Positions 8,884 to 60,982 of a stretch of 64,000 nucleotides of DNA are shown here, piece by piece. The position numbers were made by a program, and so were the translations under genes. The DNA is taken from IMG/VR virus record IMGVR_UViG_3300021091_000011; one strand, written 5' to 3'. The notes under the pieces are model-generated. The model saw only the letters and a program-made list of their open reading frames with translations, was not told the DNA's origin and did not search any database. Source of the DNA: a virus (lineage: Duplodnaviria > Caudoviricetes). Every line of letters starts with the position of its first letter. Position 1 is the first letter of the stretch.

Positions 8884-9544
8884 TTTGTTCGTCCTGTTGA
8901 GTCTGTTGTGACCATAGGAAAAAGCGTTCATCCTCGCGGTAAATCACGCCACGCTGGACTTCTTTGCCTGCGTTCTTACCGCGCATGAACTTCTTGATCT
9001 CCGTGAAATACTTGGCTTCCACGGTAGATAAGCCCCCCTCTAGCAACTCTGAAGAAATCAGACGCCAGAAGCGGGCCGAAAGCCGAGCGACCAAATAGGC
9101 GTCGGCCTCATTGTGGTTCCAAGTGGAACCACCTGCGTCTTTAACCGACGCATCCACCATATCCTTCTTGTCCATGACCCAACCTTTCGGGCGGGCAAGG
9201 GACTCGCGGGCATGGGCCTTGACCTGCAAGGGCGACCAGAAAACCACGTCGCAGCGTTCAGTCTTGAGGGCTTCGCACGAGTATAGAAACAACCCGTACA
9301 TCCCCTCCGAAAAAAGATTGTCGAAGACGGGGAATTCTATGCCAACCCTGTCGGGCTTGACTTCTCGAATCAAAGCCCGCAGGGATTCGCGTTGCGCGAT
9401 GTATCGGTCTACGAACGTCATATCTGCTGGCGTCTGGAAGCGTCCCCTGCGCGAGCATCGTGACGTTGAACCTATCGGATGGGAGTCGTCGTGAACTGCC
9501 CAACCGTAGTTTGTAAGCGAGGGGTCAAGCCCTAATACGATCAC
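8876..9544 (-). CDS. ruvC: RuvC-like Holliday junction resolvase
   Basis: VLGLDPSLTNYGWA, GIEFP and NEADAYLVA acidic catalytic pattern. Probable GTG start at 9544. Confidence 0.85.
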   Translation of the reverse strand: MIVLGLDPSLTNYGWAVHDDSHPIGSTSRCSRRGRFQTPADMTFVDRYIAQRESLRALIREVKPDRVGIEFPVFDNLFSEGMYGLFLYSCEALKTERCDVVFWSPLQVKAHARESLARPKGWVMDKKDMVDASVKDAGGSTWNHNEADAYLVARLSARFWRLISSELLEGGLSTVEAKYFTEIKKFMRGKNAGKEVQRGVIYREDERFFLWSQQTQQDEQNG

Positions 9545-37490: not shown

Positions 37491-37534
37491 TTACACCATC
37501 CAAACGGTCAGTCAGCCCCGAAAAAACCGATTTT
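37491..37534 (-). promoter_or_regulatory. Bipartite motif, copy 6
   Basis: AAAATCGGTTTT-N15-CCGTTTGGATGGTGTAA. Confidence 0.7.
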
Positions 37535-37806
37535 CAGGACTGAAAGTTCGTCGGAGCCTGCCGCCCCAAGCCCAAATCGACCTCACGCGGGTCGTCCAGC
37601 GTCGGACAGCCGTTCAGGAACGACCGATAACGGTCGCATTGGTACGCGACTCGTCCGGGCGTGTTGCAGATCTCCACCTTGCGCCACGTCTTGAGCGGCG
37701 CACCGCGAAAGGCCGAAGCCTCGAACGTCTCGACCGTCTTCGCAGTCGAGTAGTCCGCAGCCTCCGGCGCTCCGGTGAAAACCACAACCGTCACGAAACT
37801 CTCCAT
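37534..37806 (-). CDS. Small hypothetical protein downstream of the tandem RNA units
   Basis: AGGAG RBS, ATG 37806, MESFVTVVVF... Confidence 0.6.
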   Translation of the reverse strand: MESFVTVVVFTGAPEAADYSTAKTVETFEASAFRGAPLKTWRKVEICNTPGRVAYQCDRYRSFLNGCPTLDDPREVDLGLGRQAPTNFQS

Positions 37807-37824
37807 GCTCACGCTCCTGAAAGT

Positions 37825-37945
37825 AGGGTCAAACAGATTGTGCGCTTTTAGGCCCCGTAGGAAGTCTCGGGTAGCCTCACCGAAACCGACTGACAAGCCC
37901 GAAGGCCCGCTCCTACGCGGCTAGAAACGCACAATCTGTCAAAGA
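37825..37945 (-). ncRNA. Structured RNA candidate, unit 2
   Basis: Perfect 12-bp ACAGATTGTGCG/CGCACAATCTGT stem, inner CGTAGGA/TCCTACG stem and a UUCG hairpin on the minus strand. Confidence 0.55.
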
Positions 37946-37947
37946 TG

Positions 37948-38069
37948 AGGGTCAAACAGATTGTGCGCTTTTAGGCCCTAAAGGAAAGTCTCGGGTAGCC
38001 TCACCGAAACCGACTGACAAGCCCGAAGGCCCGCTCCTATACGGCTAGAAACGCACAATCTGTCAAAGA
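37948..38069 (-). ncRNA. Structured RNA candidate, unit 1
   Basis: Near-identical tandem copy starting a few nt after motif copy 7. Confidence 0.55.
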
Positions 38070-38078
38070 AACCGTCGC

Positions 38079-38123
38079 TTACACCATCCAAACGGTTTCG
38101 AACCGTCAGGAAAACCGAAAATC
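38079..38123 (-). promoter_or_regulatory. Bipartite motif, copy 7
   Basis: Consensus with a 15-nt spacer; overlaps the stop of the DUF6011-like gene. Confidence 0.75.
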
Positions 38124-38553
38124 AACCGCGACCATCGCAAATCGGCCCAAGCCCCGACTCAAGCGACTCCGGATGCGTGAGCTTCCGGCCACACTTGCCA
38201 CACTTGCCGTCGTGCCACACTTCAAGGCCCTCGGGGATCGTCCCCGCCGCGATGCGCTCCCACGCCCAAGCGAAAGCCTTGTGACTCGGAGCGTCCGCAC
38301 CGATCTTCGACTTCGCCGTGCGAATGAACCCACCGTTGGCCCCGATCAGGCCCATGTACGCATAGGACGCCTCGTTGTCAGGACCGTTCAGGACCTTGAC
38401 GAACCGAACCTTGCCGCCGTCCTTCGGCTCCTGCACCTTGAAGGTGAAGTGACGGCCCGTGGCCGTGCTCTTGAAAGTCACCGTGGCGTTGCCGCCAAGG
38501 ATGAAAGCAGCGGCGTGGTCGGCGTTCTGGATCGGGCGGGCGTTCGCGTTCAT
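38122..38553 (-). CDS. DUF6011-like zinc-finger protein
   Basis: C-terminal CGKCGRKLTHPESLESGLGPIC; AGGAG RBS before ATG 38553. Confidence 0.75.
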   Translation of the reverse strand: MNANARPIQNADHAAAFILGGNATVTFKSTATGRHFTFKVQEPKDGGKVRFVKVLNGPDNEASYAYMGLIGANGGFIRTAKSKIGADAPSHKAFAWAWERIAAGTIPEGLEVWHDGKCGKCGRKLTHPESLESGLGPICDGRG

Positions 38554-38585
38554 GTTCGGTGCTCCTAGTTTGCTTGGTTCGTCGC

Positions 38586-38684
38586 TTACACCATCCAAAC
38601 GGTCGCAGGACGCCCGAAAAACCGAAAAAGTGACGTCGATTTTCGGTTTTCTTAGCCCGAAGCAACCGTTTGGATGGTGTAAGC
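38586..38684. promoter_or_regulatory. Back-to-back divergent bipartite motifs, copies 8 (minus, 38586-38629) and 9 (plus, 38638-38684)
   Basis: AAAACCGAAAA-AGTGACGTCGA-TTTTCGGTTTT dyad core; each arm has a 15-nt spacer. Confidence 0.8.
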
Positions 38685-38713
38685 GCAAGAAACCACTTTC
38701 TAGGGAGCCTTCG

Positions 38714-38851
38714 ATGAAGTTCCGCGACAACAAGATTGCCACCGCCCGCACCGAGGCGGGAATCGTGCGATCCAAGGCGGCTCGCAAGGCCGCGATCCGC
38801 GCGGTACGCCGCGCACGCATCCTCTTCATCGAGGATAGCGCGAAGAACTGA
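38714..38851 (+). CDS. 45-aa basic protein, cassette copy A
   Basis: MKFRDNKIATARTEAGIVRSKAARKAAIRAVRRARILFIEDSAKN; GGGAG RBS. Confidence 0.7.
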   Translation: MKFRDNKIATARTEAGIVRSKAARKAAIRAVRRARILFIEDSAKN

Positions 38852-38852
38852 T

Positions 38853-38899
38853 GATTTTCGGTTTTCCAAGCGGCCCCGAACCGTTTGGATGGTGTAAGC
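38853..38899 (+). promoter_or_regulatory. Bipartite motif, copy 10
   Basis: Consensus with a 15-nt spacer, right after TGA. Confidence 0.75.
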
Positions 38900-38928
38900 G
38901 CAAGAAACCACTTTATAGGAGACTTTCG

Positions 38929-39066
38929 ATGAAGTTCCGCGACAACAAGATTGCCACCGCCCGCACCGAGGCGGGAATCGTGCGGTCCAAGGCGGCTCGC
39001 AAGGCCGCGATCCGCGCGGTACGCCGCGCACGCAGCCTCTTCATCGAGGATAGCGCGAAGAACTGA
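38929..39066 (+). CDS. 45-aa basic protein, cassette copy B
   Basis: Differs from copy A by one residue (I to S); AGGAGA RBS. Confidence 0.7.
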   Translation: MKFRDNKIATARTEAGIVRSKAARKAAIRAVRRARSLFIEDSAKN

Positions 39067-39111
39067 GATTTTCGGTTTTCCAAGCGGCCCCGAACCGTTT
39101 GGATGGTGTAA
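39067..39111 (+). promoter_or_regulatory. Bipartite motif, copy 11
   Basis: Consensus with a 15-nt spacer, right after TGA. Confidence 0.75.
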
Positions 39112-39141
39112 CCACAACTTGAAACCTTGCAGGAGTAGAAC

Positions 39142-39556: not shown

Positions 39557-39587
39557 CCCTAACTTGAAACATTCCTTGCAGGAGTAG

Positions 39588-40723: not shown

Positions 40724-40760
40724 GCGCCACTTGAAACATTCCTTGCGGGAGTAGCCGAAC

Positions 40761-41734: not shown

Positions 41735-42292
41735 ATGAGCCTTAGTATCTCACTTAACTCTAGTGCTGCGAAGTCCGGTATCTCTGGACCGCTTTGGTTT
41801 GCGTTTAGTCGAGAATTCGGCTTGGCTTTGGCTTCATGGTTGAACGCGAGTGCCTACGGCTATTCGCCTCTTGGTATTGCGCCTCCGGCTCCGTCTCCGA
41901 TTTCAGTAACGGGCTCGGGTCGATTGCAGACGTTTCGTGTGAGGTCACCTTCTGGCGTCAGTTCGGGACCTTTGGGCGTGAACACGGAGCGTGCGATTCT
42001 GGATGCGTTGGTTTTCGTGCCAATGGTTTTGAAGCCTCTAGGTTCTGGTTCGGGCTCTGGTGTGAGTCCTATATTGCCTTCGGGTAGTTTCCGTTCGAGT
42101 CTTGGTCCGTTGGGTGGTTATCTGGTCGCGCGTGTGGGGACGTTATCTGGTCCTGTTGGCAAGTCTTGGCTTTTGGATTTCGGTACTCGTCTGGAATCAG
42201 GTATGTCGTTTGTGGGTACTGCGACGGTGATTTCTCAAGTGCCTGTCCCCGTCCCCGTGATCGTATCTGTGGGGGTGATATGTCCTTTGTGA
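41735..42292 (+). CDS. Putative virion protein (S/G/V/P-rich)
   Basis: Overlaps the start of the giant ORF; similar composition. Confidence 0.55.
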   Translation: MSLSISLNSSAAKSGISGPLWFAFSREFGLALASWLNASAYGYSPLGIAPPAPSPISVTGSGRLQTFRVRSPSGVSSGPLGVNTERAILDALVFVPMVLKPLGSGSGSGVSPILPSGSFRSSLGPLGGYLVARVGTLSGPVGKSWLLDFGTRLESGMSFVGTATVISQVPVPVPVIVSVGVICPL

Positions 42293-45200
42293 TTAGCGGG
42301 TCTGGTGATCTATCTGGTGCGGTGGTCTGTGTGCCGAGCATCTGGATTAGACTTGGTGATCCTTGGACGAGGGTTTGTCCTCAACCTGCGAACGCGGTCA
42401 ATCTTTTTGCATCAGCCGCCGTGAACAATAGCAATAGTGCGGTCACTCTCACGCCTCGTGCGGTCGACTTGTATCATTGGGTTGAATCTGGCGTTGAGGT
42501 TAGAAATGTCGGCGCGATTAAGCCTTCTGGCAACGTCATACCGAGTGGGTTTGCTGTTGGCGATCAACTGCCTGATTACTTTCTTTTGGGTTTGGGCGGT
42601 GTGAGTGTTGATTGCGAGTTAGTGAGTAACAATCCCGGTGGCTTAACGCCTAATAGGGCTTACCTAAACATTAACAACGGCGAGTTTTACTTAGGCGCGG
42701 GCTTGATACTCGAAACTTTGCAGTACGGCCTAGACACCGTGCAGAGTTTAGTGGTTGGGGGGGATAACAAGGCCCGAGTTTGGGTGAATACGCTGCGTGT
42801 TGGCTTGGGTTTGGTTTTGTCTGACTGTATCTACGGCGTGTTAAACTGCCGTCTAGTAATCTCTGACTCAGACTTGCCTTTGCCTGCTGGTATTAGCCCG
42901 ACTGAGTTTTACTTATCGCTTGCTTCGGGCTTGTGTGTATTTTCTTCGGTTTATATTTCTGGTCGTGTGCTGAAAATCTTGGGCGTGGGCGTTTCTAGTA
43001 ATCCCGTGCCGAATGTTCGTCATGTAGTATTGAATGCGAACGGTCGTGGACAGGTTCCCGCAGCCGATTCGTTGACCTTGTGGCCGTCGAACTTAGCGGG
43101 TTGGTCGCGTGGGCCGATTACGGCGGTTGGCGATAGACCTTCGGCGTGGGGTGTTGTTACTGAGAATTCGGGCGAGTTGTTTATCGTGGGCAAGCGTGAT
43201 TTGCTTGCGATTGTCGAGTATGACTCGGACTTGCCGACGCAGGGTTACGGTTTGAATCGTGAGCGGGGGTATTACTCGCTTGAGTCTGGTGCTTTGCAGG
43301 TTCGTTCGGGTGTGGGCAACGAAGTTGTTGATTTCAAGTGTGGGTTAGTGCCTGTTGGTTTTGAGGCTCCTGTTGGCGTCGTCAGTTTAGTGGGTTTGCT
43401 TCGTGGTCCGTTTGACTTGAGCGGCGAGACATTTGTTTTCGCGCTTGACGGCGTTGTGACGTCATTTACGTTGCCGATTGGTAGATATACTTCGGGTCAG
43501 TTGGCCGTGTTGCTTAATGCGGCCTCTGGTGTTCCGAATGCGTGGTTTGATTTAGCGGGTGGTTTGGCTTGCGTAGCGAACGCGAGCATTGAGATTGGTT
43601 GGGGCGACGCTCGTATTGGTTTCGCGCAGGGTTGGATTGTCACGTCGGGCGCGCGTTGGAATTCTTACAACGGCTTGGCGATGGGCTTATATCGTCAGGT
43701 GGGCGAGGGGGATTTGACCGTCCGTTTGTACGGCGAGGTGGACGATGAGATTCTGGTCGAGAAGATCGGCGAATCTTCGTTGGTCTATTTGGGTCAAGGT
43801 TTTCCGGACGCGCTGCAATCTGGTTATGAGCCCGATGGTTTCTTTGAGATTGTGGGTTCCAACGGCTTGATTTCGCAGCCGTTGTCGGGTCGTCCGACGG
43901 CGGGCGTTTTCACGAGTTCGTGGGGCGTGGGTTTGCTTTTAGATTGCGTGGAGCGCAATCGTTTCTCGTGGGTCGAGCGTTTTGAGACGGGGTCTATTTC
44001 AGTAGACAACGGCGTGGATCAAATCACGCTCGACGGCTTGGGCGTGATTTCACTTACTCTTGAGGTCCAAGAGCCGAATTTGCCGTGGTTGCCGCAGGAG
44101 TATGTTCTCGTCGGCAACACGGCGTTGTTTTCATCGCGCATCGGCGCGGATTTACTATCGGGCGGCGTGGGCGAGTCTGTATCTGGCGTTTTCACGGACG
44201 TCACGATTGCTGATTTCACAGTTGCAAACGTGAACGTCGGTGACTTGCTGGTGACGAGCGATAATCTCGTCTATCGAATCATCAGCGTCGCGGCGGGTGC
44301 GTTGGGTTTATATCCGAGTGATTCGTTCGGGCTTGTGGGTTGGCAGGTTTTAGATACCGAGCCTGTTGGTTTAGCCGTGTACGATCCGGCTTTGATTGCC
44401 GACAGGCAGTTTTTACAGTTGCCGACGTGGGACGGTGGTGATCCGTTTGCGATTCGGGTGATTACGCCGTTATCGGGCGCGACGGCGAATCTTTCTAAGC
44501 CCTATGCGAAGTCGCTCCGTTACGGTGCTGTGGACGCGGGCAATAGTGCTTTGGACTTGCTTGTGCGTGGCGTGAGCATGGGCGCTTTGTCCTCGCAGAT
44601 GCAGATGCCTGCTTTTGTTTTGTCAGACCCGCATTACACGACGAGTACGGCGGGTGGTTTTTACTTCAGCCTTCGTGTGCCGACGGCTGTGATCGTGATT
44701 ACGTCGGCCTTCACGGTGCCTTCGCCGCCGCTTGGCGTGATCGAAGTCGGCCTATTCGGTTCGGGCATCAGCGGCCAAGTGCGTGTCGCATCGAACTTAG
44801 TGACGGCCTATGCTGATTTATTGGTCTACTACGATCAAGAGTTCTTGCCCGCTGGCGTGATCGTGAACGCCGAGGGCGATATAGCGACGGGTGCATTGAA
44901 CATTCCGACGGCGTATGCGGGCGAGTCGTTGTTCTTGGTCGAGAAATACACGTCGGATTCGGTGACGGTGAGCCCTGTTCCGGGCACGGCGTTTTTTCAG
45001 ACGCCGATTGAGCCGAGGCAATACGTTGAGGCGACGTATTACCCGACGAACTCGGGTGGTGTGAATAAGACGGGCGACTTGATTGTCGAGTTCATGCCCA
45101 TTTCGATTCGATTGGAGGAAGCGACGCGCATCAATGCGCGGCTTTACAGTTTCAATCCATCGGGCTTGGCGTATGACTCTGCTTCGGAGCCGATGATTTG

Positions 45201-48200
45201 GGTCGGTGCCGAGATGCAGAATTACTCGGGCAATCTTACTGCTACTGTAAACGGTGCATTGTCGCAGATAGCCTTTACTTACGACGTGCCCATAACGTCG
45301 AAGGTTCAGATTACCTACTCGGTGCTCAACGCGCCTTTGGGCACGGCTTCTCAGTCGTATCAGGTCACGCAGGCTCCGGTGTGGCAACCGCCGTTCTGGT
45401 TGAACGCGGGTCAATCGGTGTTTGTGTTGGAGGGTGATCGTACTGCGACGGTCGCGCCGGATCATTTGATCGGCGTGGGCGGGAAATACGTCGCTTATGT
45501 GCAGGGCGTCACGTTATTGCCGAGCGGCGATACGCAGGTCGAGATTTACCCCGCGCCTGTGCGCGAAGTCGGTTCACGTTCGCCCGGCGTAGATCAAGGC
45601 TTGGTGATCACGGATCGTAATGTAACGGACGTGGACTTTATTCAGGTCGTCCCGAACGCATTTCTCGGTGCGGGCGTTGGCGCGAGCCTGATTCAGTTTT
45701 ACGGCGATGCGAGGTCAATCATCGCGCCGAGGCATTTGATTGACCTCGACGGCGTTCCGTATCTAGTCCAGAACGTCCAACTCACGAGCGATGGGCGCAA
45801 GACCGTCGCTTACCTGCAAATTCCTTTGCAGCGTGACGTGGCCGAGGGGTCAGTCGTCAAGTGCTCTTTTAGGCCCATTTACCAGAATCAGCCCATAGAT
45901 TTCACTATCTCGGGCACGCAGATTACGGGCACGAGTTTCACGGCTATTTTATTCTCGTCTGATTCTTCGATTCCTGGCAAAGTTCTAGTCCCGAATACCC
46001 AATACGTCGTCGAAAACGGCGCGCTCAAGTTTCAGACGCAGTTTCAGACGCCTTTGCAGCCGAATGAACGGTTGTACGCGAGTTACACGAAAAGCAAGGT
46101 GATTTCGCCGACGATGATTGACGATGCTTTGGTCGTGCCGAAGTATCGTGCGACGTACTTGGCGATTACGCAGCCTTCGGACGCAAATGGTCTGTTGGGC
46201 GGCGTGTTGAAAGGCAAGTATTTCTATCTCGACGCTGAATCGTTCACGCTGAAGATTCAGCCGATTGCCGACTACTTGCCCATAGTATTACTCGACGCGG
46301 CACGTCGTCCCGAGAATCCCGATGATACGGCCACCCCGACGCCTTTCCCGCAAGGCGGCGCGGTGACTGTGCAGAAGCAGGCCGAGAATGCGCGCAACGC
46401 CTATTGGGATGCCTTGAATCTCGATGCGGGTGGGCGCGTGTTCGTCACGCTGTTTAACAACGCCGTGACGCCCTTCGAGCAAGTGCTTGAGACCATCGAC
46501 GGTCGCGTCATCGGTGACCGCGATGGCAAACTGCGGTTGTATGTCGGTCCCGAGTCCGTCACGCCTATTGCGGGCGGTGTTTATGCGCTCACGTCGCATT
46601 TGTACCCGCGCGTCGTATGGCGTGATTTGTTGGAAGCGTGGTCGCCGAATACGTCCGGCTGGTTCTTCATGCCCGACGACTTTATCTATGACCCTCGCTC
46701 TATCACGTTGGGCGTAAATCCGGGCTCTTTGAACGGTTACCCGCCTTCCGGCCCTGATCTGGATTTCTTCATTGACTTGCAGCGCGAGTATCAGCGCAAC
46801 GACGTAGACGACGTTCTAATGACGTCGTTCAAGCGCAACGTAACGCTCGCTAACACGCTATTGCCCGTCATTACGTTCAAGGGCCGCTTCGAAAGTGCGT
46901 GGCAACCTAACGCATTCTCACGGCTCTATCCCGAGCAGACGCGCTATTTCACGCGGCTATTGCCGGGCCTTGAGGCGCAGATTGACGCTAACACGGGCGA
47001 AGTAATCGACGCAGGCTTTTACTCAGCCGGACGGCTGCTGCCCGTCGCTGGTACTCAGCCCGGAACGACAGTTAACAAGGTCGTCAAAACGCGCAACACG
47101 GTCATCGGGCAAATCTCGAACCCCGTCTTGGGCGAACTCAAGAACGTATCTGATATCACGGCCAATGACCGTGGACCTCGTGCGCGCGTGTGGGCCTATT
47201 ATCCGAACGGCAACGCCGCTTTAGATGCCGCACTTGCTTTGGCGACGCCGACGGTTGGCCGCGCTACGCTGGTGTTGACGCCTCAGACGATTAACGACTT
47301 CGTGATAGATCAAATCACGGGCTTTCCGGACACGAGCCTGCTGGTCACGAATGGCGGCGCGAATCCTGACGTGAACTCAGGTGATGCCGAACTGTCTACG
47401 CCGGAGTTTGCCTCCGGCGATCAGATTCTCTTGGGCAATCCCGACGGCACGGTTCGAACCGTTTACTTGCCCGCATCCGGCCTTGGCGCTGCCGAGAATC
47501 CCGTGTTCGTGGACGATATTCAGGCCGGATGCGTAGTCTTCCTGAAGGATTTGAACAATAGTGCCCTTTCGGGCGCGCAGATTTTTATGTCGGACCCCAT
47601 ATCAGGTGGCGGCATTAGTTTTGATCCGACGCAGGGCGACACGATCTTCACGCCGACGTCGCAAGCGGCGATTGCACCCAATCTTGTGAGTGATCCGGTG
47701 AGCCTCGCGGACGCCGCGAAGTTGATTGAGACGAACGGCGACTATCGAATTCAGAATGACCTCAAGGTGCGCCGCAGGACGGGGCAGATTCTCGACGCCA
47801 GCCTGCCCGTCGTAGAGGACATTTGGGGGCTTCCGATTCAAGATTGGGCGGGTCAAAACCCGCCGCTTCCGGGCTCTTGCATCGAAGGCACGGCTGATAT
47901 TATCAACGCCGACTCGGAACCCGCCCGATTGCCCGCGCTCTTTGGCGGCACTCGTGACGATTCCGGCGATAATCAGATTCCGTTTTTGGCGTTGGGCAAC
48001 ACGGAAATTCGGCTACTGCAACAAGCCTCGCGTTTGTTTGACGGCTTGTTTCTGGACTCAGCGGCACCCGTTCAAGCGGTGTACCCCGATGAGATCGCGG
48101 TGTCCGATGGCGTGATTTACGGTGCGGTGACGGGTGGCTTGGAACCTGCGACGCTTTACACGGCGACGGCGAACTTCACGCCTGTTTTCGTGGCGGGCTC

Positions 48201-51200
48201 TGGTGTCGGCCCCGCGCGCCAACGTGATTTCTTGCTTGTGCAGACCGGACAATCGCCTATTGGAATCACGGGCATTCAGTCGATTGGCTCGGTGAGTGCT
48301 GACTCGGTTGAACCCCCTCGATTCGTCACGAACACGCAACGCGGCGACTTGCATAGGTACACGGCTCAGAATCTCTTTGGGCACAAAGGCGGCGGCACGA
48401 CGGGCCTTCGCATTACCGAAGTCGGCTTCGCACGTCTATTCGACTTTTCGGATGTCGCAGGCATCGTACTCGATGACGGCTTGGGCGCAGGCAACGGTGG
48501 TCTGGACGCGCTGATTAATCTTGGCGTATCGCCAGGCAACGTGCTCGTCATCAACGTCTATAACCCAAGTCCGTTGGCCGTAAACGCCTACTTGGGCAGC
48601 GTGGTGATACCGAGCACGGTTTTGGCGGCGGTGATTTACTACAAGCCCGCTGTCGGTGTGGCCGTATCGACAAATCTCACGCCTCCGGGCTGGACGCTGC
48701 TGAACTCGACGCAGTTGCAAATCAACGCCGTGGCGTCCGTCTTGAGCACGCTTGGCTTGGTTTCGGGCCAAGCCTACGACTTCACGCTTACAGTTGATAC
48801 CTACGTCGATACGACGACGAGCAATCTGACGAGCGGTGCGTTGGCCGTCGGCTCCGCATTAGGTTCGACCTCCTGTTCGATTCGTGTGAATCGACTTACT
48901 TTCGACGAGCGCGTGTCGTTTGCCTCGGCTTTGCCGCGAAACACGAACCCCGCGAACGGCGACGGCTCAATCGAAATGGGCCTCGCGCTCAATGTTTTCG
49001 AGAGTCCGGTCGGCGCGGGCGCGGTAATCTCGACGGTCAACAACGCCTCCGAAATCAACGGCGGGCTTTATCTGACTTTTCTAGCACGCACTTACGGCGT
49101 CGGCACTTTCACGGCGGCGACATTGCCCGCAACCGAAATCGGTTCCGTGCGCGCGATGGCGTGGGAAGGTCACGGCAATACGCCGATCACGGCGACGAAT
49201 CTGGTCGTATCTGCGGTGCCCTCGTCCGAACGTGATGCCGCTGGCGTCATTTGCGACGGCTCCGGCGTCATTCTCGATGCGGTCGCGCCCTACGCGACCG
49301 AGAACGTGACGTGGTTGCAAACGCTGGCCGTCGCTAACGGTGCAGTAGCGAACGTCGAATCTGGCGACGTCGCTATCGTCAACGGCGGGCTAATCACGGG
49401 CGCGGTGAAAACAGGCACTTACTTGGTGCGTCACGCGGTCACCGAAACTGCTTTCGGCCTGCGACCGATTAAGAACTCGACGCTGGCGGGCAGCAAAACC
49501 TGTTTCGACCTTCGATTCCCAACCGTCGTGAGCATTTCGGGCGTCCTGAGTCTTACAGTAGGCAACGTGCAGCCTGTTTTGTATTCCCCGACGGGCTGCG
49601 GTTTCCCATCATCCGGCTTCGTCTACGTCATCCGAAATGACGTGTGGGTGACTTGGTCTGCGGGCGTTTACACGCTCAACGCCGAGGCGGTCTACAAACT
49701 CGGCTACTCGGCGGTCGCTTACAACGCTGCGACTAAGACGGCGGTTTTCACGCTGACGGGCTTGAGACTAAAAGCCGATGGTTCACCCATCACGCCGTCT
49801 GAACTCGCGTTGGGCGTTACTGCAAACCTGAAAGTGTCCGGTTTCAAGTATCTGCCCATCGGACGCTTGGCCGATGATTTGCCGGACAATAATCTGGTGG
49901 GCTTCGGTTCGGCTGGCGGCATCGCGGGCGTCACTAACGTCACCATCGGCACGCAGGCGATTGCGGGTGCTCCGGTGGCGTCATTCACTTGGAACACGGC
50001 TTCGGTCCCCGCATTGGTTCAAGACCTCTCGGGCGCGGGTCCGGCTGCGAATCAATTGGCCGTGCGCGTTCCGACGCCGAATGACTCCACGGCGTTCTAT
50101 GCCGACACGAACGCGGTGATTTACGGTCGCGTCGATAACGGCGTGAACCCCGTCACAGGCGTCGCTTCGCATCTGGACCTGACGACGATTGATTGGGACA
50201 CGGTGCATTTCAATCCCGTGTTTGCCCCGACCGTCCTGCAATGCTTATTGCCCGGCGATGAAGTCGCGTTCTCGGACAGCATCAGTCCGCTTGCGAATCC
50301 CGGATTTTCGGCGGTCGCGGGCATCTTCTTAGAGCCTTCGATACCTAAGCCCGTCGGTGACTTGAACAGTCTCGACCCCCATGTGGTCACGGCTTCGCAC
50401 ACGACGCTCGACGTGGGTATCCGCAAGTACGGTGATTTCGTCGCGCTCGGCACGCAAGAAACCGTGCAGTTTGCCATTCGCCGCATTCGTCGCTTCCATG
50501 ACGTGCAAACGAACCTCTCGGCAATCATCGACCCCTTGCGATTCGTCTACGAGACTCGTCGCGGGCCTATCGCCGTCCCTATTGCTACGCCGACTGTTAA
50601 CGTCACTTTCGCGGACGGCACGACGCTCGGCTTTTTTGACGACCCCGATGTGGCCGTAAAGCCAAGTTGCACGCTGCGGGTACTAAACGCTGCGGGTGAT
50701 GTTCTCGATACGGCTGAAATCAGGGCGGTGCTCAGTTCAACATCGTTGCTTTTGCGCGAACCCGGACTAACGCAAGACCTGACCTCTGCTGCGTCCTTCG
50801 AGATTTACCTCGTCGATGCGCCCGTGCCCCATGAGCAATCATGCGCGCAGTTGCTAGACGCACTTGTTGACCCGAATGGCGGCGGCTCGATTGTTTATAA
50901 GCGCACGGTGGACTACTCGACCTACCCCTTCGGAAATGGCGGCTCGGTCATTACTGCGAATGAGTTGCTAGATGCGGGCTTGGCTACGCTCACGTCTAGC
51001 GAGTTGGTGCTTCAAGACGACTATGTGATTGTCGATCCCGCAGGGGCTTTGTTCGCGGCGGGCGAGACGGGCCTATTCCCGAACGGTGACACTTCTGTAT
51101 CGGGACGTGTGCCCTTTGTCGCGGGGCGTCCGTCGAAGTTGGACGACAATCGCGGCTTTTATCGCGTCACGGCGAATCAAACGTCCGGCGATAACAAACT

Positions 51201-52011
51201 TGTGGTCTCGGGCACCACGCAATTCAGCGGCTCGGATGAACTCGGCGGCGACGACGTGATCTACGGCGACGTGGGCGCTGAATACGCGGTGCTGCCGACG
51301 ATTAGCGGGTCATTGGTTTCGCAAGGCCCGACCGAAGGCCAGCAAACTCTTCGCGTCACGGCTTCGGCTGACGGCACGGGTGCTTTCTTAGGTCGTGTTG
51401 GCGACGCGCAGTATCGCTCGCTTGAGCCTTTCGGCTTCACGGTGATTCGGCCTGCCCGCACGGTGTTTTCGTCGAACGAATCCATCGAGACCACGTTGTT
51501 CATGCGCGAACGTATGTTGAGCCTGATTCAATACATGGCTTCGGCTTATGGGCGAGGCGGGACGTATTACGTTTTCCAGCGTGACGATCAAATCGAGAAC
51601 CTGCCTAACCCATCTGACGTACTCGTGGGTCAAGGCGTGTTCACGAACGCCATTGTAGACTTACTTCGCGGTCTGACTAACTACGCGCCGTTTGCGAACA
51701 ACCCAATCTGCCTGTCGGTGCATGACCGAAGGCTTTGGATCAAAGATTTCGCGTTGGATTATGAAAGCCCGAACGGTGTCGCGCCTTTCTATGCGGCTCT
51801 TAGCACGAACGGACTGAATCAGAGGCCCATTTTGACGGATTTCATCGACGATGTGCTTGACAACGTCGATGATTTGCATGGCGCGCGTTACGCTTGGCTT
51901 GAATATCGCACGAATCAGGTAAATGGGACCATCGTGAGCGCGAGTCGTTCGAAAGAAAGAATCAATCAAGTTAGGGTGAAACAGGCGAACGCGATTCGAC
52001 GTAGCCGCTAA
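42280..52011 (+). CDS. Giant (about 3240 aa) putative tail/baseplate structural protein
   Basis: Uninterrupted 9.7-kb ORF, beta-rich G/S/T/V/A composition, no enzyme motifs seen. GGGGGTGAT RBS before ATG 42280. Confidence 0.65.
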   Translation: MSFVISGSGDLSGAVVCVPSIWIRLGDPWTRVCPQPANAVNLFASAAVNNSNSAVTLTPRAVDLYHWVESGVEVRNVGAIKPSGNVIPSGFAVGDQLPDYFLLGLGGVSVDCELVSNNPGGLTPNRAYLNINNGEFYLGAGLILETLQYGLDTVQSLVVGGDNKARVWVNTLRVGLGLVLSDCIYGVLNCRLVISDSDLPLPAGISPTEFYLSLASGLCVFSSVYISGRVLKILGVGVSSNPVPNVRHVVLNANGRGQVPAADSLTLWPSNLAGWSRGPITAVGDRPSAWGVVTENSGELFIVGKRDLLAIVEYDSDLPTQGYGLNRERGYYSLESGALQVRSGVGNEVVDFKCGLVPVGFEAPVGVVSLVGLLRGPFDLSGETFVFALDGVVTSFTLPIGRYTSGQLAVLLNAASGVPNAWFDLAGGLACVANASIEIGWGDARIGFAQGWIVTSGARWNSYNGLAMGLYRQVGEGDLTVRLYGEVDDEILVEKIGESSLVYLGQGFPDALQSGYEPDGFFEIVGSNGLISQPLSGRPTAGVFTSSWGVGLLLDCVERNRFSWVERFETGSISVDNGVDQITLDGLGVISLTLEVQEPNLPWLPQEYVLVGNTALFSSRIGADLLSGGVGESVSGVFTDVTIADFTVANVNVGDLLVTSDNLVYRIISVAAGALGLYPSDSFGLVGWQVLDTEPVGLAVYDPALIADRQFLQLPTWDGGDPFAIRVITPLSGATANLSKPYAKSLRYGAVDAGNSALDLLVRGVSMGALSSQMQMPAFVLSDPHYTTSTAGGFYFSLRVPTAVIVITSAFTVPSPPLGVIEVGLFGSGISGQVRVASNLVTAYADLLVYYDQEFLPAGVIVNAEGDIATGALNIPTAYAGESLFLVEKYTSDSVTVSPVPGTAFFQTPIEPRQYVEATYYPTNSGGVNKTGDLIVEFMPISIRLEEATRINARLYSFNPSGLAYDSASEPMIWVGAEMQNYSGNLTATVNGALSQIAFTYDVPITSKVQITYSVLNAPLGTASQSYQVTQAPVWQPPFWLNAGQSVFVLEGDRTATVAPDHLIGVGGKYVAYVQGVTLLPSGDTQVEIYPAPVREVGSRSPGVDQGLVITDRNVTDVDFIQVVPNAFLGAGVGASLIQFYGDARSIIAPRHLIDLDGVPYLVQNVQLTSDGRKTVAYLQIPLQRDVAEGSVVKCSFRPIYQNQPIDFTISGTQITGTSFTAILFSSDSSIPGKVLVPNTQYVVENGALKFQTQFQTPLQPNERLYASYTKSKVISPTMIDDALVVPKYRATYLAITQPSDANGLLGGVLKGKYFYLDAESFTLKIQPIADYLPIVLLDAARRPENPDDTATPTPFPQGGAVTVQKQAENARNAYWDALNLDAGGRVFVTLFNNAVTPFEQVLETIDGRVIGDRDGKLRLYVGPESVTPIAGGVYALTSHLYPRVVWRDLLEAWSPNTSGWFFMPDDFIYDPRSITLGVNPGSLNGYPPSGPDLDFFIDLQREYQRNDVDDVLMTSFKRNVTLANTLLPVITFKGRFESAWQPNAFSRLYPEQTRYFTRLLPGLEAQIDANTGEVIDAGFYSAGRLLPVAGTQPGTTVNKVVKTRNTVIGQISNPVLGELKNVSDITANDRGPRARVWAYYPNGNAALDAALALATPTVGRATLVLTPQTINDFVIDQITGFPDTSLLVTNGGANPDVNSGDAELSTPEFASGDQILLGNPDGTVRTVYLPASGLGAAENPVFVDDIQAGCVVFLKDLNNSALSGAQIFMSDPISGGGISFDPTQGDTIFTPTSQAAIAPNLVSDPVSLADAAKLIETNGDYRIQNDLKVRRRTGQILDASLPVVEDIWGLPIQDWAGQNPPLPGSCIEGTADIINADSEPARLPALFGGTRDDSGDNQIPFLALGNTEIRLLQQASRLFDGLFLDSAAPVQAVYPDEIAVSDGVIYGAVTGGLEPATLYTATANFTPVFVAGSGVGPARQRDFLLVQTGQSPIGITGIQSIGSVSADSVEPPRFVTNTQRGDLHRYTAQNLFGHKGGGTTGLRITEVGFARLFDFSDVAGIVLDDGLGAGNGGLDALINLGVSPGNVLVINVYNPSPLAVNAYLGSVVIPSTVLAAVIYYKPAVGVAVSTNLTPPGWTLLNSTQLQINAVASVLSTLGLVSGQAYDFTLTVDTYVDTTTSNLTSGALAVGSALGSTSCSIRVNRLTFDERVSFASALPRNTNPANGDGSIEMGLALNVFESPVGAGAVISTVNNASEINGGLYLTFLARTYGVGTFTAATLPATEIGSVRAMAWEGHGNTPITATNLVVSAVPSSERDAAGVICDGSGVILDAVAPYATENVTWLQTLAVANGAVANVESGDVAIVNGGLITGAVKTGTYLVRHAVTETAFGLRPIKNSTLAGSKTCFDLRFPTVVSISGVLSLTVGNVQPVLYSPTGCGFPSSGFVYVIRNDVWVTWSAGVYTLNAEAVYKLGYSAVAYNAATKTAVFTLTGLRLKADGSPITPSELALGVTANLKVSGFKYLPIGRLADDLPDNNLVGFGSAGGIAGVTNVTIGTQAIAGAPVASFTWNTASVPALVQDLSGAGPAANQLAVRVPTPNDSTAFYADTNAVIYGRVDNGVNPVTGVASHLDLTTIDWDTVHFNPVFAPTVLQCLLPGDEVAFSDSISPLANPGFSAVAGIFLEPSIPKPVGDLNSLDPHVVTASHTTLDVGIRKYGDFVALGTQETVQFAIRRIRRFHDVQTNLSAIIDPLRFVYETRRGPIAVPIATPTVNVTFADGTTLGFFDDPDVAVKPSCTLRVLNAAGDVLDTAEIRAVLSSTSLLLREPGLTQDLTSAASFEIYLVDAPVPHEQSCAQLLDALVDPNGGGSIVYKRTVDYSTYPFGNGGSVITANELLDAGLATLTSSELVLQDDYVIVDPAGALFAAGETGLFPNGDTSVSGRVPFVAGRPSKLDDNRGFYRVTANQTSGDNKLVVSGTTQFSGSDELGGDDVIYGDVGAEYAVLPTISGSLVSQGPTEGQQTLRVTASADGTGAFLGRVGDAQYRSLEPFGFTVIRPARTVFSSNESIETTLFMRERMLSLIQYMASAYGRGGTYYVFQRDDQIENLPNPSDVLVGQGVFTNAIVDLLRGLTNYAPFANNPICLSVHDRRLWIKDFALDYESPNGVAPFYAALSTNGLNQRPILTDFIDDVLDNVDDLHGARYAWLEYRTNQVNGTIVSASRSKERINQVRVKQANAIRRSR

Positions 52012-52059: not shown

Positions 52060-55000
52060 ATGCCTGAAAGTTTTGGGAACGGCGTATCTCGCACTCTGAG
52101 TGCGCTAAATCGTCAGTTTCAAGCGGTCACTTGGCAGGCTAACAAGCCTCCGCTGGACTCCGAACTCAACCTGATGGCGCAAGTCGAGTGGGAGCGACTT
52201 GGCAATCTCGTTCGCTCGCAGACGCATAGCGGGTTTTTCATTGACCCCATGCAAGCGACGGCTGATTTCGTCACCAGCGCCGATTACTCGAACTTCTTTC
52301 GACTCGGCAACGTCCCCATTGGCTTTCAAGCCCCCGCAATGTGGGCTAACGTCAACGGTTGGGTTATTCCTGTCACGGGCGTTGCTTACAATGGCGTCAC
52401 CAATCAGGTGAATCTCTGGCCCCCTCCGGCGAGCGATGCCCGAATCGACTTCGTGTTCTTGGAAGCCTGGCTTACTTTGGTCGCGCCGAATCCGAGCACG
52501 GCGAATAAGCCTTCGGCCTCCACGATTTACAAGTACGGCAACACGCAATACGGCGGCACGAACGTCGCTGACGACATCGAAGATCCCGCGATTGGCTTTG
52601 AGACGACCGAGCGCGTGCAATTGCAGTATCGCATTCGCGTATTCGGCCAAGGCACGGGCTTGGGCAATAGCGTTGCGCTGAACGTCTATCCCGATGGTCT
52701 TGATGACCCTTCCGTGAAGGCTCAGGGCACCGCCGCTGCTCCTTTGCCTGCGTACTCGTGGGCGAATATGCGTGACGTGCTCGGCGATGCGGGCTTGTGG
52801 CGCGCAGGCGATGGTGACCCCGAAAACGCTTTGGGCACGCTCGACGGCTACGTTTACGCGATCCCGATTTGCGCGGTCTTTCGTCGCAATACCAGCCCTT
52901 TTATCGCGCAACAGCCTGCGGGTAACGCAAATCAAAACGGCGCTTTCGACCGCAACCCATACTCGGCACCCATTACAGACCCCGCTGAAGCCGTCCGCAC
53001 GTTCACTTCAGTCACGTTGACTTCGAGCCTGTCTGCTACGGCTTCGGGCGTGGTGAGCGTAACGAGCTTGGCGAATTCCGGCTTGGACAACCCCGATTTG
53101 TATTCGGGCGGCTCGGTTTTCTACCTGCTCGACGGCGAGGTTGTAGAAATCAGCGGCGTCGGCGCAGGCACGATCACGATTGCGTCGCGTGGGCGTTTGG
53201 GTACTCAGGCCGTCCCGCATGACGCGGCGACCGCCCTACGGTTCTATTGCTTCCGCGCAGACGGCTTGTTCTCAGATCAGATTGCGGCGAGTGACATTCT
53301 TGACCTTCGCCGTTCGATTACGCTTGGCGAGTGGGACTACAACCAAATCCTGCTGCACAATCTCGGGCAGTTGTTCGCCAACAGGCTGCGGTCTAGTTAC
53401 AAGCAGTCCGGCGCGGCTGATACCGAGGGCACGGTCGTCCCCGAGGTTTCATACCTGCCTACCACGAGCCTTTCGCCTGTGCCGAATCAAACCGAACAGG
53501 TGGATTCGCCCGATGGGATTCGTGAGGTGTTCTCGGACGCCGTGGTGATTCAAGACAATGTGACCGTCATGCTTTTGCCTGACTCAAGCGGTGGGCCGGG
53601 CGCTCCGGTCGCGGTGCCTGATTTCACGTCGGGTGCGCCGACTTGGGAAACGGCTGCGGATTTCCAGCCGAACGGTTGGCAACCTTCGGGCGAGGGCATT
53701 CAGAACGGCACGGTCATCAATCTTTTCATCGGCGGTGCTTCGGGCAACGACGGTGCGCGCAAGTCCATGGGCGGTGTGCGAGCCGTTCGTTTCGCTACGC
53801 CCAAAGAAATGTGGCTCCAAGGCGCGGAGAGCAAGACGCCGTTCAAGTTGCGCTTCGTTGGTTCTACGACGGCGTCAAATGACGGCTTGTTCTGCGAGCC
53901 CCCGGTCACGGGCGAATTGGTTGGCGAACATCCTGGCCCGATGTACCCGCTTCCTCAGTTGAACTTCGAGTATCCGTTCATCGTTCTCGGTGGCGTGGTC
54001 GAAACGTCACTTCGCAATACGTCGGCAACCGTCGTGAGCGCGGCGACTACGGGTGACTACGCCGAGGTGCAATTCCCTGGTCTGAATTTCACGGCGGGCG
54101 GCGCATGGGTGAATTCGACTGATCCGCTTAATCCTGCTTTGGTCACCAATCCGATTCTTTACGGCAAGCGCACGCTCTACGATATGATTACGAAGGGCGG
54201 CACGGATATCACGGGCCGTTCATCTGAACTCTATCTGGTCCTGTCCGGCGATACGACGAACTCCGAAAACTGCGGTGTGTTCCGCGTCATCGGCGCGGGT
54301 GATGTTGCTTCCCAATACACTTCGGTTACGGGCACGGCAGTAAACTCGCTCGTCGTAGAAGGCGTGCAAGCGGGATGGACGGATTTCGTTGACGCGGCCA
54401 ATCTGACCGCCGAAGTACGTTCGCAATACTCGAATACCGAGGACGGCCCGAACGCTTCCGTGGGCAACGCTGCGGCGGCAGTTGTCGTAATGACCGATCT
54501 CGCGGGCACGTTGGGCGGTGTTTCTAACCCATGGCGTGCTGCTACGCTTGGCGCAAACGCCATGACGTTCCCAAATGCGAGCGCGGCGATTCTCGACACG
54601 AGCCTGATTTATGGCTCTGGACGTGGCGCAATGCCCCGCGTACCGGACACAATTGACCGCTTCGCCGTCGTCAACCCCATTTCTTCAACCTACTTGCTTC
54701 GTCGCGCGGTGGGCACGATTGACCCCGCTGCGGGCTCTGCTGACGTGCCCACGAACGAGATTTACTATCCCGCTCAGGGCGTGCAAACGTGGTCGGGACT
54801 TTCAGACCATGGCCTCAACGCTCCCGAAGGTCAATCGCTCCCGCTCGGCAATGGGCGTGGCGCTTTGTCGGAGCAGTTGCGTGAGGGCGAACTTTTCGCC
54901 GATGCGGGTTCTAAGACGCTCGTGATTCGGCCTTACCGCAAGGTCAACCTGTCGGTGAATCTGCGTGATGTGAACGTGGACGGCGGCGGCACGCTTGTAC

Positions 55001-57369
55001 CGACGACTTATGCTGCGGGCGCAGGCGCAGGCAATTCGGTTGACGATGCGGGCATCTTCGACGCGGGCTTGAAAAAGGGTTACAGCCTGCCCCCCGAGTA
55101 TATGCCTCGATTCGGGCGGCAGGATATCCCCGTCTACAAATACGCGGCGACGGACGTTATCGCGGCGCTGCCCTATTACTTCGGCGTCAATCACCTGTTC
55201 GCTGATTCGGTCACGAACACCGACGCCGTGTTTAATCTCATCGGTGGCACGGATAACGGTGGCGCTGCGGACGTCACGTCTATCTTGTTTCAGACGAGCG
55301 TAGCTTCGGGCTTGGACTATGGCGAGTACGGCCCGATTGTGGGCGGCAACAACGCCTATCAGTCGCGGCTCTACACCGATATCAACGTCCGCGCTTCGGA
55401 CTTGCCTCCGGGCTTGAAGGGCATTCAGTTGCCCCCATTCTTGGGCATCGCACGCATTTACGGCGTGTACGATGCCCGCGAATGGGCGGGCTCTGGTGCG
55501 TGGCAGGCTGATCGCGTGACGCCGGAAACGGGCGGCACGCCTCCCAAGAACTTGATCCGCACGGATGCCGATAAGCAGACGTTGTTCATTGTTCAAGGCG
55601 GCGCAATCGACGTTACGCTGAACGAAAACGATCACACTTACGTCATCCCCGAAAACCTGATCGACATTCGGCTCTCGGGCTCTTTCGTCGCGGGCGAGAC
55701 GTTTGACGATCTGGATTACATTGTCGAGTGCGAAGTGTTTGGCTTCGCACGAGGCTTCATCAACCTCAATAACTACGTCCTAGCCCGAAAGCACAACGGC
55801 GCAGGAGCCGCGCCTTCTGGACTCGCGCAGGATATCGGCATGGTCTTGCCTTTGCCCTTGCCTGCGAATAGTTGCTATGCGGCTTACCATCGCACCGTCT
55901 ATCAAGGCGACCCATACATGACGCGGGGCGCAGCCGCTCAGGTCGTTTCTGACTATGAGCCGCGCTTCGGACAAATCTCCGTCGCCAACGCCTATCAACT
56001 CGTCACCGCGATTCAACAGTTCGACGCTAACGGCGATCAAGTGCCGGAAATCCCGAACGCGCGTGGGCTTGAGATTCTGGCCGCTGCTGATTTTTATACG
56101 ACGCTCGGCACGGGCAAAATCGGCGGCGCTTTGCAATCCGGCACGGCGACTGACATTGGGCATTTAGAGTCCAACGGCACGCGCTTGCCGACATCGGCCA
56201 CCGCCAATCAGTTTCAGCCGCAAGCCCGCACGTTCACCGAAGGCCAGCCCGAATCCGCGCCTCGTGGTTCGCTCGTAATCCGCGTGCTTTTGGCTTCGGC
56301 GGCTTCGGCTAATCAGTCGATCTATTTCTATCAGGGTGCGAAGTATCAATACGCACAATCAAATGCTAGTTTCTCCGGCCTGACGACTTCTGCTACGGCT
56401 GAAGACTTGGCTGACTTTATCAACAGTCAGGTCAATCCTTACGTCCCCGTCAAAGCCTATTGGAATGGCGGTAACGACGTTTTGGTTCAGGCGGTCAATT
56501 CCGGCGTGAGTGATATTAGAATCGACCTGCGGCCTGCGGGTACGAATCGTGACGTCACGGGTTTCGCTCTGATCGCACCTACGGGTTATGCACCTGCATC
56601 GACCTCGCGCTATTTACTCGGCGGTCAGGACATTCCAGTAAACGCGGCGCGTGTAAGCGACGCGCCAACGCCGATTGCAATAACGGGCCTTACGGAACGC
56701 TTGCCTTTGGGCATCCTGCTCAATGACTCGGACTTCATTGGTGAGGACCCCGCGCGCACGGGTTCTTCGATGCTTCACGTCGCGCCTTCGGCGGGTGGGC
56801 CTGCTGGCAACGTCAAGGTGCCCGAAGTGCGCGGTGCCGAATACGACCGCCTAAGCGGACCTGCGGGGCATCTCGGCATGGCCGATGGCGGCGTGTTGCT
56901 TTATACGGCTTGGACGACGGTGACGCCTACGGGTAGCCGACTCTTCCGCGTCTATCGCGGCGGCACGGCTTACGTCATCGGCGGTCAAAATCCGGGTGGT
57001 CCGGTCGATTGGACTTCCGGCAATCTGCCCGACGGCTCCGTGTTGAAAGGCTGTGTGCTCGCAGGTCGAGCCTATCTCGTCCGTAACTACGAAGAATCAG
57101 CCTTCGGCAACGTGACGACGCACGGTGACGAAATCCAAATGGTCATCGTCACTCGCGGCATCGTCGGCGAAAGTTTGAACTGCGAAAACGGCTACGCCCT
57201 TGTCGGACAGATTAGCCCGACGGGTTACGGCGAAGGCTATTCGGCGGCTGACCGATATAGGCTTGAAGGCAAGCCCTTACACGCAGGCACGAGCAAGAAC
57301 GGCCCGAATCCTGTTGTCCCCTTGGCTCCGTATCCTACGGACGACCCGCAACCCTCGACGCCATGCTGA
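52060..57369 (+). CDS. Large (1769 aa) putative tail/baseplate or fibre protein
   Basis: Follows the giant ORF; N-terminal PPLDSELNLM; similar composition. Confidence 0.65.
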   Translation: MPESFGNGVSRTLSALNRQFQAVTWQANKPPLDSELNLMAQVEWERLGNLVRSQTHSGFFIDPMQATADFVTSADYSNFFRLGNVPIGFQAPAMWANVNGWVIPVTGVAYNGVTNQVNLWPPPASDARIDFVFLEAWLTLVAPNPSTANKPSASTIYKYGNTQYGGTNVADDIEDPAIGFETTERVQLQYRIRVFGQGTGLGNSVALNVYPDGLDDPSVKAQGTAAAPLPAYSWANMRDVLGDAGLWRAGDGDPENALGTLDGYVYAIPICAVFRRNTSPFIAQQPAGNANQNGAFDRNPYSAPITDPAEAVRTFTSVTLTSSLSATASGVVSVTSLANSGLDNPDLYSGGSVFYLLDGEVVEISGVGAGTITIASRGRLGTQAVPHDAATALRFYCFRADGLFSDQIAASDILDLRRSITLGEWDYNQILLHNLGQLFANRLRSSYKQSGAADTEGTVVPEVSYLPTTSLSPVPNQTEQVDSPDGIREVFSDAVVIQDNVTVMLLPDSSGGPGAPVAVPDFTSGAPTWETAADFQPNGWQPSGEGIQNGTVINLFIGGASGNDGARKSMGGVRAVRFATPKEMWLQGAESKTPFKLRFVGSTTASNDGLFCEPPVTGELVGEHPGPMYPLPQLNFEYPFIVLGGVVETSLRNTSATVVSAATTGDYAEVQFPGLNFTAGGAWVNSTDPLNPALVTNPILYGKRTLYDMITKGGTDITGRSSELYLVLSGDTTNSENCGVFRVIGAGDVASQYTSVTGTAVNSLVVEGVQAGWTDFVDAANLTAEVRSQYSNTEDGPNASVGNAAAAVVVMTDLAGTLGGVSNPWRAATLGANAMTFPNASAAILDTSLIYGSGRGAMPRVPDTIDRFAVVNPISSTYLLRRAVGTIDPAAGSADVPTNEIYYPAQGVQTWSGLSDHGLNAPEGQSLPLGNGRGALSEQLREGELFADAGSKTLVIRPYRKVNLSVNLRDVNVDGGGTLVPTTYAAGAGAGNSVDDAGIFDAGLKKGYSLPPEYMPRFGRQDIPVYKYAATDVIAALPYYFGVNHLFADSVTNTDAVFNLIGGTDNGGAADVTSILFQTSVASGLDYGEYGPIVGGNNAYQSRLYTDINVRASDLPPGLKGIQLPPFLGIARIYGVYDAREWAGSGAWQADRVTPETGGTPPKNLIRTDADKQTLFIVQGGAIDVTLNENDHTYVIPENLIDIRLSGSFVAGETFDDLDYIVECEVFGFARGFINLNNYVLARKHNGAGAAPSGLAQDIGMVLPLPLPANSCYAAYHRTVYQGDPYMTRGAAAQVVSDYEPRFGQISVANAYQLVTAIQQFDANGDQVPEIPNARGLEILAAADFYTTLGTGKIGGALQSGTATDIGHLESNGTRLPTSATANQFQPQARTFTEGQPESAPRGSLVIRVLLASAASANQSIYFYQGAKYQYAQSNASFSGLTTSATAEDLADFINSQVNPYVPVKAYWNGGNDVLVQAVNSGVSDIRIDLRPAGTNRDVTGFALIAPTGYAPASTSRYLLGGQDIPVNAARVSDAPTPIAITGLTERLPLGILLNDSDFIGEDPARTGSSMLHVAPSAGGPAGNVKVPEVRGAEYDRLSGPAGHLGMADGGVLLYTAWTTVTPTGSRLFRVYRGGTAYVIGGQNPGGPVDWTSGNLPDGSVLKGCVLAGRAYLVRNYEESAFGNVTTHGDEIQMVIVTRGIVGESLNCENGYALVGQISPTGYGEGYSAADRYRLEGKPLHAGTSKNGPNPVVPLAPYPTDDPQPSTPC

Positions 57370-60777: not shown

Positions 60778-60982
60778 TTCAGGCACTTCCCTTCGTCCAT
60801 CTGCAATAGCCCGCAGGCACGATGCCAATAGCAAAGCCGCTCGAAATCAGGGCCGCTTACTTTACCCCGCGAATCTTGCGGGTCAGGACCATAGACCTTT
60901 GCGTGAATCGGAGGCCACAAATCCCCGTTCGCACAAGTTATATCCGCACGATTAGCATCCGGTTTCATTCGCTTCACGTCAC
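60684..60982 (-). CDS. Hypothetical Cys-containing protein
   Basis: GTGA coupling to the polymerase stop; overlaps the ParB-like ORF by about 90 nt. Confidence 0.45.

Follow-up and report, generated by a model that had tools for sequence, protein, structure and literature searches.

To our knowledge, few phage-encoded non-coding RNAs are understood, and those that are (pseudo-ToxI, Racrs and viral guide RNAs) are counter-defence tools. In the early region of phage T7, RNase III sites are simple hairpins of ~50-60 nt, placed behind strong promoters and ahead of the genes that come first; sites of this type are irregular duplexes of at least about 20 bp. HK022 put RNAs are promoter-proximal structured RNAs that act on downstream terminators, and the pRNA of phi29 is an RNA of ~120 nt with paired ends, a three-way junction and its own promoter, which multimerises by complementary loops. 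The antitoxin repeats of type III toxin-antitoxin systems measure ~34-40 nt. These systems are defined by short repetitive nucleotide sequences that serve as the antitoxin and by a Rho-independent terminator before the toxin (PMC5086642). A Racr is an RNA that resembles the host CRISPR repeat in both sequence and secondary structure (PMC10651486), and described phage decoy RNAs comprise Racrs or solitary repeat units, pseudo-ToxI and viral sgRNAs (PMC10651486, PMC3475682, bioRxiv 10.64898/2026.06.01.729453).

The locus described here lies on the minus strand of a 64,000-nt stretch of DNA (hereafter the window, which is the whole of the sequence analysed) from an uncultivated giant phage of lake water; the sequencing runs listed as containing this sequence are DNA runs from lake and freshwater metagenomes, with no RNA run among them. 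Tandem Repeats Finder reports a repeat at 37825-38069 with a period of 124, 2.0 copies, 95% matches and a score of 446. The first-pass annotation had described two near-identical tandem units on the minus strand behind the seventh copy of a motif, and this is what we found. The motif copy that precedes the array (38077-38121, minus, 45 nt) is bipartite and consists of TTTTCGGTTTT, a 15-nt spacer and CCGTTTGGATGGTGTAAGC; the repeat starts 8 nt beyond it and the first helix, P1, about 14 nt beyond it. A covariance model built from four units, R1, places unit 1 at 37955-38062 (minus, 108 nt; 119.5 bits, E 8e-28) and unit 2 at 37832-37938 (minus, 107 nt; 118.9 bits).

In each unit, a 25-pair, slightly irregular P1 closes a three-way junction with the hairpins P2 and P3. 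In unit 1 (all coordinates on the minus strand), the 5' strand of P1 runs over ~38061-38035 and its 3' strand over ~37985-37956, P2 with its UUCG loop occupies 38034-38017, the junction strand J2/3 (CAGUC) 38016-38012, and P3 with the loop U-GAGGCUA-C 38011-37987. The corresponding parts of unit 2 are ~37937-37911 and ~37862-37833 for P1, 37910-37893 for P2, 37892-37888 for J2/3 and 37887-37863 for P3. Six aligned columns separate the two units; the only model columns at which unit 2 departs from unit 1 are 24, 25, 79 and 84-86. These differences fall in the inner stem (columns 24-25 and 84-86), plus one indel; two of the inner-stem changes are fully compensatory (C-G to U-A and G-C to A-U) and one is a U.U mismatch, which bears out the earlier impression that copy differences concentrate in the inner stem and are partly compensatory. 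The inter-unit linker, read from the sequence as GACCCUCAUCUUUGA (37939-37954, minus), looks like a fusion of the sequence that follows unit 2 on its 3' side with the sequence that precedes unit 1 on its 5' side. It probably marks the junction of a tandem duplication, formed between the short CTTT/TTTGAC homologies on either side of the unit.

Outside the array, the window encodes DNA methyltransferases and, on the minus strand, a RecA-like protein (6388-8931), a RecD2-like helicase (11597-15124) and a family A DNA polymerase (60979-63990). Intein splicing domains occur in the RecA-like protein and the helicase; LAGLIDADG is present as a domain in the RecA-like protein and as an insert in the polymerase. 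On the plus strand, a Pfam search at E <= 0.001 matched neither of two adjacent giant ORFs (42166-52011, 3281 aa, and 52060-57369, 1769 aa).

The predicted fold of the array is unusually stable. The 251-nt stretch has a minimum free energy (MFE) of -118.8 kcal/mol (z = -6.5), a stability that none of 200 shuffles reaches. The MFE fold consists of two equivalent domains, each passing from a perfect 12-bp outer stem (ACAGAUUGUGCG with CGCACAAUCUGU) through a bulged helix into the three-way junction. Both the 12-bp outer stem and the GGGCC-UUCG-GGCUU hairpin proposed on first reading appear in this fold. A third arm had also been proposed; the arm itself is present in the MFE fold, while its GUC...GAC register was slightly off, as covariation supports GGUUUCGG with CCGAGACU, a 1-nt bulge and a closing G-C.

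Covariation in homologues, the check suggested along with the first-pass annotation, was found and is strong. In an alignment of 14 distinct units, which was fitted to the model and hence favours the structure somewhat, 96.7% of 574 pair cells hold standard pairs; sliding the 3' partners by 1-3 columns lowers this to 33-49%, a margin that is large regardless. Both-sided change occurs in 11 of the 41 pairs, with the reservation that the units are related and come from one narrow clade, so that some covariation is inherited and independent compensatory events are fewer than the cell counts suggest. Neither the covariation score nor the percentage paired was matched in any of 500 shuffles of these 14 units. 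All three helices contribute to the signal, P1 with 25 pairs of which 95.7% of cells are paired. The P2 tetraloop is UUCG, GAAA or GUAA across units, an interchange that is usual among stable RNA tetraloops.

The pairing is specific to one strand. The first 11 distinct units contain 66 G.U cells, several of them at invariant positions, versus 2 A.C cells; on the complementary strand only 82% of cells would pair, and R1 scores 24-38 bits antisense versus 100-120 bits sense. The excess of G.U over A.C indicates that the fold is selected on the transcribed strand, and therefore that the element is an RNA rather than a DNA repeat; the substitutions argue that this fold is maintained by compensatory change on that strand. 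The strand favoured by the RNA pairing is the direction in which the motifs point.

While the stems vary, the P3 loop U-GAGGCUA-C and the J2/3 strand CAGUC are invariant. Almost all differences in three independent close pairs of units are taken up by one patch of P1 (columns 24-25 with 84-87; 2-3 bp), located at 37911-37914 with 37855-37858 in unit 2 and at ~38035-38038 with 37978-37982 in unit 1. This patch may be either the one place in the RNA where drift is tolerated or a determinant of specificity that is being diversified. Outside it, much of the helical sequence is also unchanged in the close pairs, evidently more conservation than pairing alone needs. In nucleotide conservation the units equal or exceed the genes beside them: identity is 91-93% for the units versus 88.6% for the neighbouring DUF6011 gene, and 95-99% for the units versus 95% for the neighbouring 90-aa ORF.

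Searches for described RNA classes were negative. Rfam 15 gave no match in the window at gathering score, nor any on two other loci (L007, L017); at E up to 10, the best window hits were microRNA hairpin models, whose 19-20 bits compare with thresholds of 64-70. No tRNA or tmRNA was predicted by ARAGORN, either in the window or in five other loci (L007, L010, L016-L018). Judging from the fold and its covariation, the units are a real, previously undescribed family of structured RNAs of ~105-125 nt. Several likenesses noticed by eye were dropped because support was lacking, namely an origin resembling tRNA-Asp, from the shared GGAGCGG and UCAGUCGGUU, a stem of the Y-RNA or Ro-binding kind, and promoter mimicry like that of 6S RNA, from the TTGACA in P1. 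ATCTGTT at the end of the unit was considered as a T7 class II pause signal and dropped as well, since relatives do not keep it, and a pseudoknot between J2/3 and the loop is geometrically unlikely and not kept in the type A units described below.

Relatives of the locus were fetched via homologues of the 90-aa ORF, homologues of the DUF6011 gene and one metagenome pattern scan. Full-length R1 units (100-120 bits) occur only in one clade of freshwater giant-phage contigs. The arrays of these relatives hold from 3 to at least 4 diverged units of three types. In L007-L009, L022 and L107-L112 the order is promoter-A, promoter-B, C, with at least four units in L022; in L021 and L024 it is promoter-I, promoter-II, II', and in the window promoter-I, I'. 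In the relatives, two units each follow a promoter of their own, always equally far behind it and after a conserved GGTYC-TTTGAC lead-in; the third unit in every relative's array, like unit 2 of the window, is without a promoter. Type A (L007:2063-2184, L107:3350-3471, L022:1536-1657) is a divergent paralogue that scores 35-39 bits and shares the outer stem and the overall architecture. Since the relatives' arrays hold diverged unit types, the near-identical pair in the window is a recent local duplication of one unit.

Beyond this clade, R1 gave no match in 151 sampled Alphaproteobacteria or in contigs with more distant homologues of the 90-aa ORF or the DUF6011 gene, and blastn of a 1-kb region against 50,697 phage records returned none. 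Exact-pattern matches in IMG/VR (P3 loop and P1 patterns) and matches to the P2-J2/3 pattern in GTDB genomes were chance matches in coding sequence or unrelated hairpins, and so were 4 of 7 metagenome pattern matches, as judged by reading plus the covariance model.

The neighbours of the array differ between contigs. Upstream in the window lies a gene with its own promoter cassette for a DUF6011-domain protein of 148 aa (38122-38568, minus; Pfam 2.8e-10; phrog_20259). Its closest homologues (92% protein identity) are followed by the same RNA array in L024 and L107-L112; in L007 the gene is absent from this position. The 90-aa ORF lies downstream of the array in most contigs and upstream of it in L021, and was not found in L024. 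The last unit is always 15-40 nt upstream of an ORF. As the neighbours differ in this way, the conserved cargo is the RNA and not a partner gene; the array behaves as a mobile module among variable small early genes.

The motif in front of the array belongs to a set. Its core occurs in 13 copies within the 64-kb window against 0.01 expected, all of them intergenic and facing an RBS and ATG 20-45 nt downstream, some as divergent pairs. A scan of the motif region for the sigma-70 consensus found none above shuffles. From their layout, the copies are probably the early promoter cassettes of the phage. A structured stretch of 250 nt between motif and RBS is present in 1 of the 13 window cassettes only. 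Another cassette, comprising the promoter and a small ORF (MKFRDNKIAT start), is part of a 215-nt tandem duplication at 38664-39111 (plus; 2.1 copies, 97% matches). It lies 600 nt from the array and is duplicated likewise, hence cassette-level duplication recurs in this region; a homologue of its ORF stands behind the same promoter motif in the IMG/VR contig L002. A second leader element, ACTTGAAAC(A/C)...TTGCRGGAGTAG, is shared by three cassettes, between motif and ATG, at 39114-39141, 39559-39587 and 40726-40760 (plus), and its UUGAAAC core is also found in J2/3 of the relatives' type A unit.

We tentatively propose, with a probability of roughly 0.4, that the array produces an abundant early RNA that binds a protein and acts in trans. 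The cassette promoters would transcribe the array heavily soon after infection, and a stable RNA of ~110 nt would either persist as a 5' body or be excised via P1, for instance by an RNase III-type enzyme that recognises long double-stranded stretches. Once bound to its protein, it would serve to decoy or soak up a host or defence factor, or else to regulate. The invariant P3 loop and J2/3 would form the recognition surface, held by scaffold stems that would be free to covary, and several copies plus extra promoters would raise the dose. The P3 loop has complements in the window only in the units themselves, with no convincing target, and its sequence is not enriched in three alphaproteobacterial genomes relative to a reversed-pattern control. 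Own promoters, variable copy number and diverged paralogues are the pattern expected of an arms-race locus. The array represents an RNA class that covariation supports and that lacks relatives in Rfam, encoded by uncultivated giant phages in an early region that is hypervariable, and R1, with sequence, fold, invariant surface and relatives defined, provides a seed model for wider searches.

As the main rival to this proposal, the array could instead work in cis, as a leader whose hairpins protect the 5' end of an early mRNA or serve as RNase III-type sites, setting the stability and translation of the downstream ORF as such sites do in the T7 early region; we consider this possible and somewhat unlikely. 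That ORF, directly downstream at 37534-37806 (minus), had been noted at first pass and is real. It encodes 90 aa and has 52 homologues (P0001-P0052) with 55-86% identity and invariant D-Y, W-R and Y-Q-x-D-R-Y motifs. Its confident model (pLDDT 93.5) has three strands and one helix, with no match of the fold in PDB or AFDB at E <= 0.001; no Pfam or PHROG family matched, and a protein atlas search yielded no usable match. Unit 2 ends 14 nt before its RBS, AGGAG (37818-37814), and the intrinsic terminator scan found none in the interval 37806-37832, while over the wider region such sites are no commoner than in shuffles. If no processing occurs, the ORF would be co-transcribed with the array. In every relative, too, the array ends just upstream of an ORF, and no terminator follows any unit, so every unit is also part of an mRNA leader. 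Moreover, a P1 of 25 pairs with small bulges is a plausible substrate for a double-strand RNase.

A stabiliser or cleavage site, however, needs a hairpin only, whereas here the junction, the invariant 8-nt loop and the junction strand are conserved. The copy number of 2 to at least 4, with diverged types and internal promoters that drive further units, also speaks against a leader function, as do the absence of the element from 12 of the 13 cassettes and the fact that the downstream ORF differs between relatives. The ORF family is in turn found apart from the RNA array in many other phages and in integrative elements. Its neighbours in other phages include PARP-like, RNA ligase and DNA ligase genes, and the homologue in L028 adjoins a CD-NTase/Cap15 defence island.

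It is improbable that the units are cis-acting modifiers of the put kind, in which the nascent structure binds RNA polymerase after the promoter and alters elongation or termination. Such a role would suit the start of the units ~14 nt past the motif and the relatives' promoter-borne units with their fixed distance and conserved lead-in. It would not suit the units that lack a promoter, namely the relatives' third units and unit 2 of the window, and terminator-like sites to override were not found downstream. Each cassette serves a single gene from a promoter of its own, and the RNA units, which have no Rfam match, are roughly double the size of put RNAs.

Similarly improbable is a new catalytic or ligand-sensing class, be it a ribozyme whose self-cleavage would divide the array into monomers or a riboswitch. 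The first-pass annotation recognised no ribozyme or riboswitch in the sequence, and indeed none among the Rfam families matched even at E up to 10. A tandem arrangement, conserved junction nucleotides and a phage setting would be in keeping with this explanation; a single unpaired junction strand, with many conserved positions inside helices, would not, and a riboswitch is unlikely because the 25-pair P1 is far too stable for switching.

We find it very improbable that the array is a DNA-level element (an inverted-repeat mobile element, a recombination site or an origin) with incidental hairpin potential. The 12-bp stem does form a terminal inverted repeat with TTTGAC on both sides in the window, and the region is recombinogenic, with the 215-nt cassette duplication adjoining. 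A DNA-level repeat is nonetheless unlikely because of the strand asymmetry of the pairing, the tetraloop swaps and the lack of further copies, none being found by R1 elsewhere in the 64-kb window; relatives, moreover, do not keep the TTTGAC flank.

The analogy with type III toxin-antitoxin loci in the first-pass annotation, with the repeats as RNA antitoxin and the 90-aa ORF as toxin, is largely refuted: the locus resembles ToxI, CptI and TenpI in placing tandem RNA repeats before a small ORF under one promoter (PMC5086642), but differs in its 124-nt period and 107-108-nt three-way-junction unit instead of short repeats, in the failure to find the required Rho-independent terminator between repeats and ORF, and in an ORF that matches no endoribonuclease toxin (ToxN, AbiQ, CptN or TenpN family) and no known fold, is found without the RNA, and lies upstream of the array in L021.

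Among the other described systems, the T7 RNase III sites share with our trans-acting candidate the long irregular duplex in early phage transcripts, here the 25-pair P1; they differ from it in that the present units have a conserved three-way junction, invariant loop and junction sequences, and multi-copy paralogous arrays. The phi29 pRNA is similar in general form, being a phage RNA of ~120 nt with paired 5' and 3' ends, a three-way junction and its own promoter. It belongs to an unrelated phage type, however, and the RNAs described here lie in an early variable region, have an interchangeable tetraloop as their P2 loop, and show no Rfam match.

The phage decoy RNAs are likewise small non-coding RNAs placed right behind a promoter and away from the gene of the cognate protein, and in both cases a high dose matters. 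As with Racrs, the units begin 8-14 nt past the motif, and no Cas family matched among the window proteins scanned. They differ from Racrs and viral sgRNAs in having 105-125 nt and a closed 25-pair P1, as opposed to a repeat of 28-37 nt or an sgRNA whose 5' guide is free. The window units (CAGUC) bear no likeness to the alphaproteobacterial type I-C repeats that were retrieved. In type A, the strand equivalent to CAGUC is CGAUUGAAAC, which follows a GC tetraloop hairpin; the retrieved type I-C repeats have a GC hairpin and then GUGGAUUGAAAC. The type A segment CGATTGAAAC matches 9 of the last 10 nt of type I-C repeats, a likeness noticed after the fact, and its hairpin is 2 nt closer to the handle than in true I-C repeats; UUGAAAC, besides, stands in three mRNA leaders of the window, though not in the window's units. 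The likeness fits the Racr concept (PMC10651486) and makes type A a possible RNA anti-CRISPR candidate, which we present as a lead and not as a finding. An unlikely extension of the decoy proposal is that a constant three-way junction serves as a modular scaffold that presents exchangeable bait (J2/3 and P3). If so, the paralogues of an array would mimic different host RNAs and disarm different defences: type A, with its hairpin and I-C crRNA handle GAUUGAAAC, would be the anti-CRISPR version, and the window type, with CAGUC and the GAGGCUA loop, would aim at another target.
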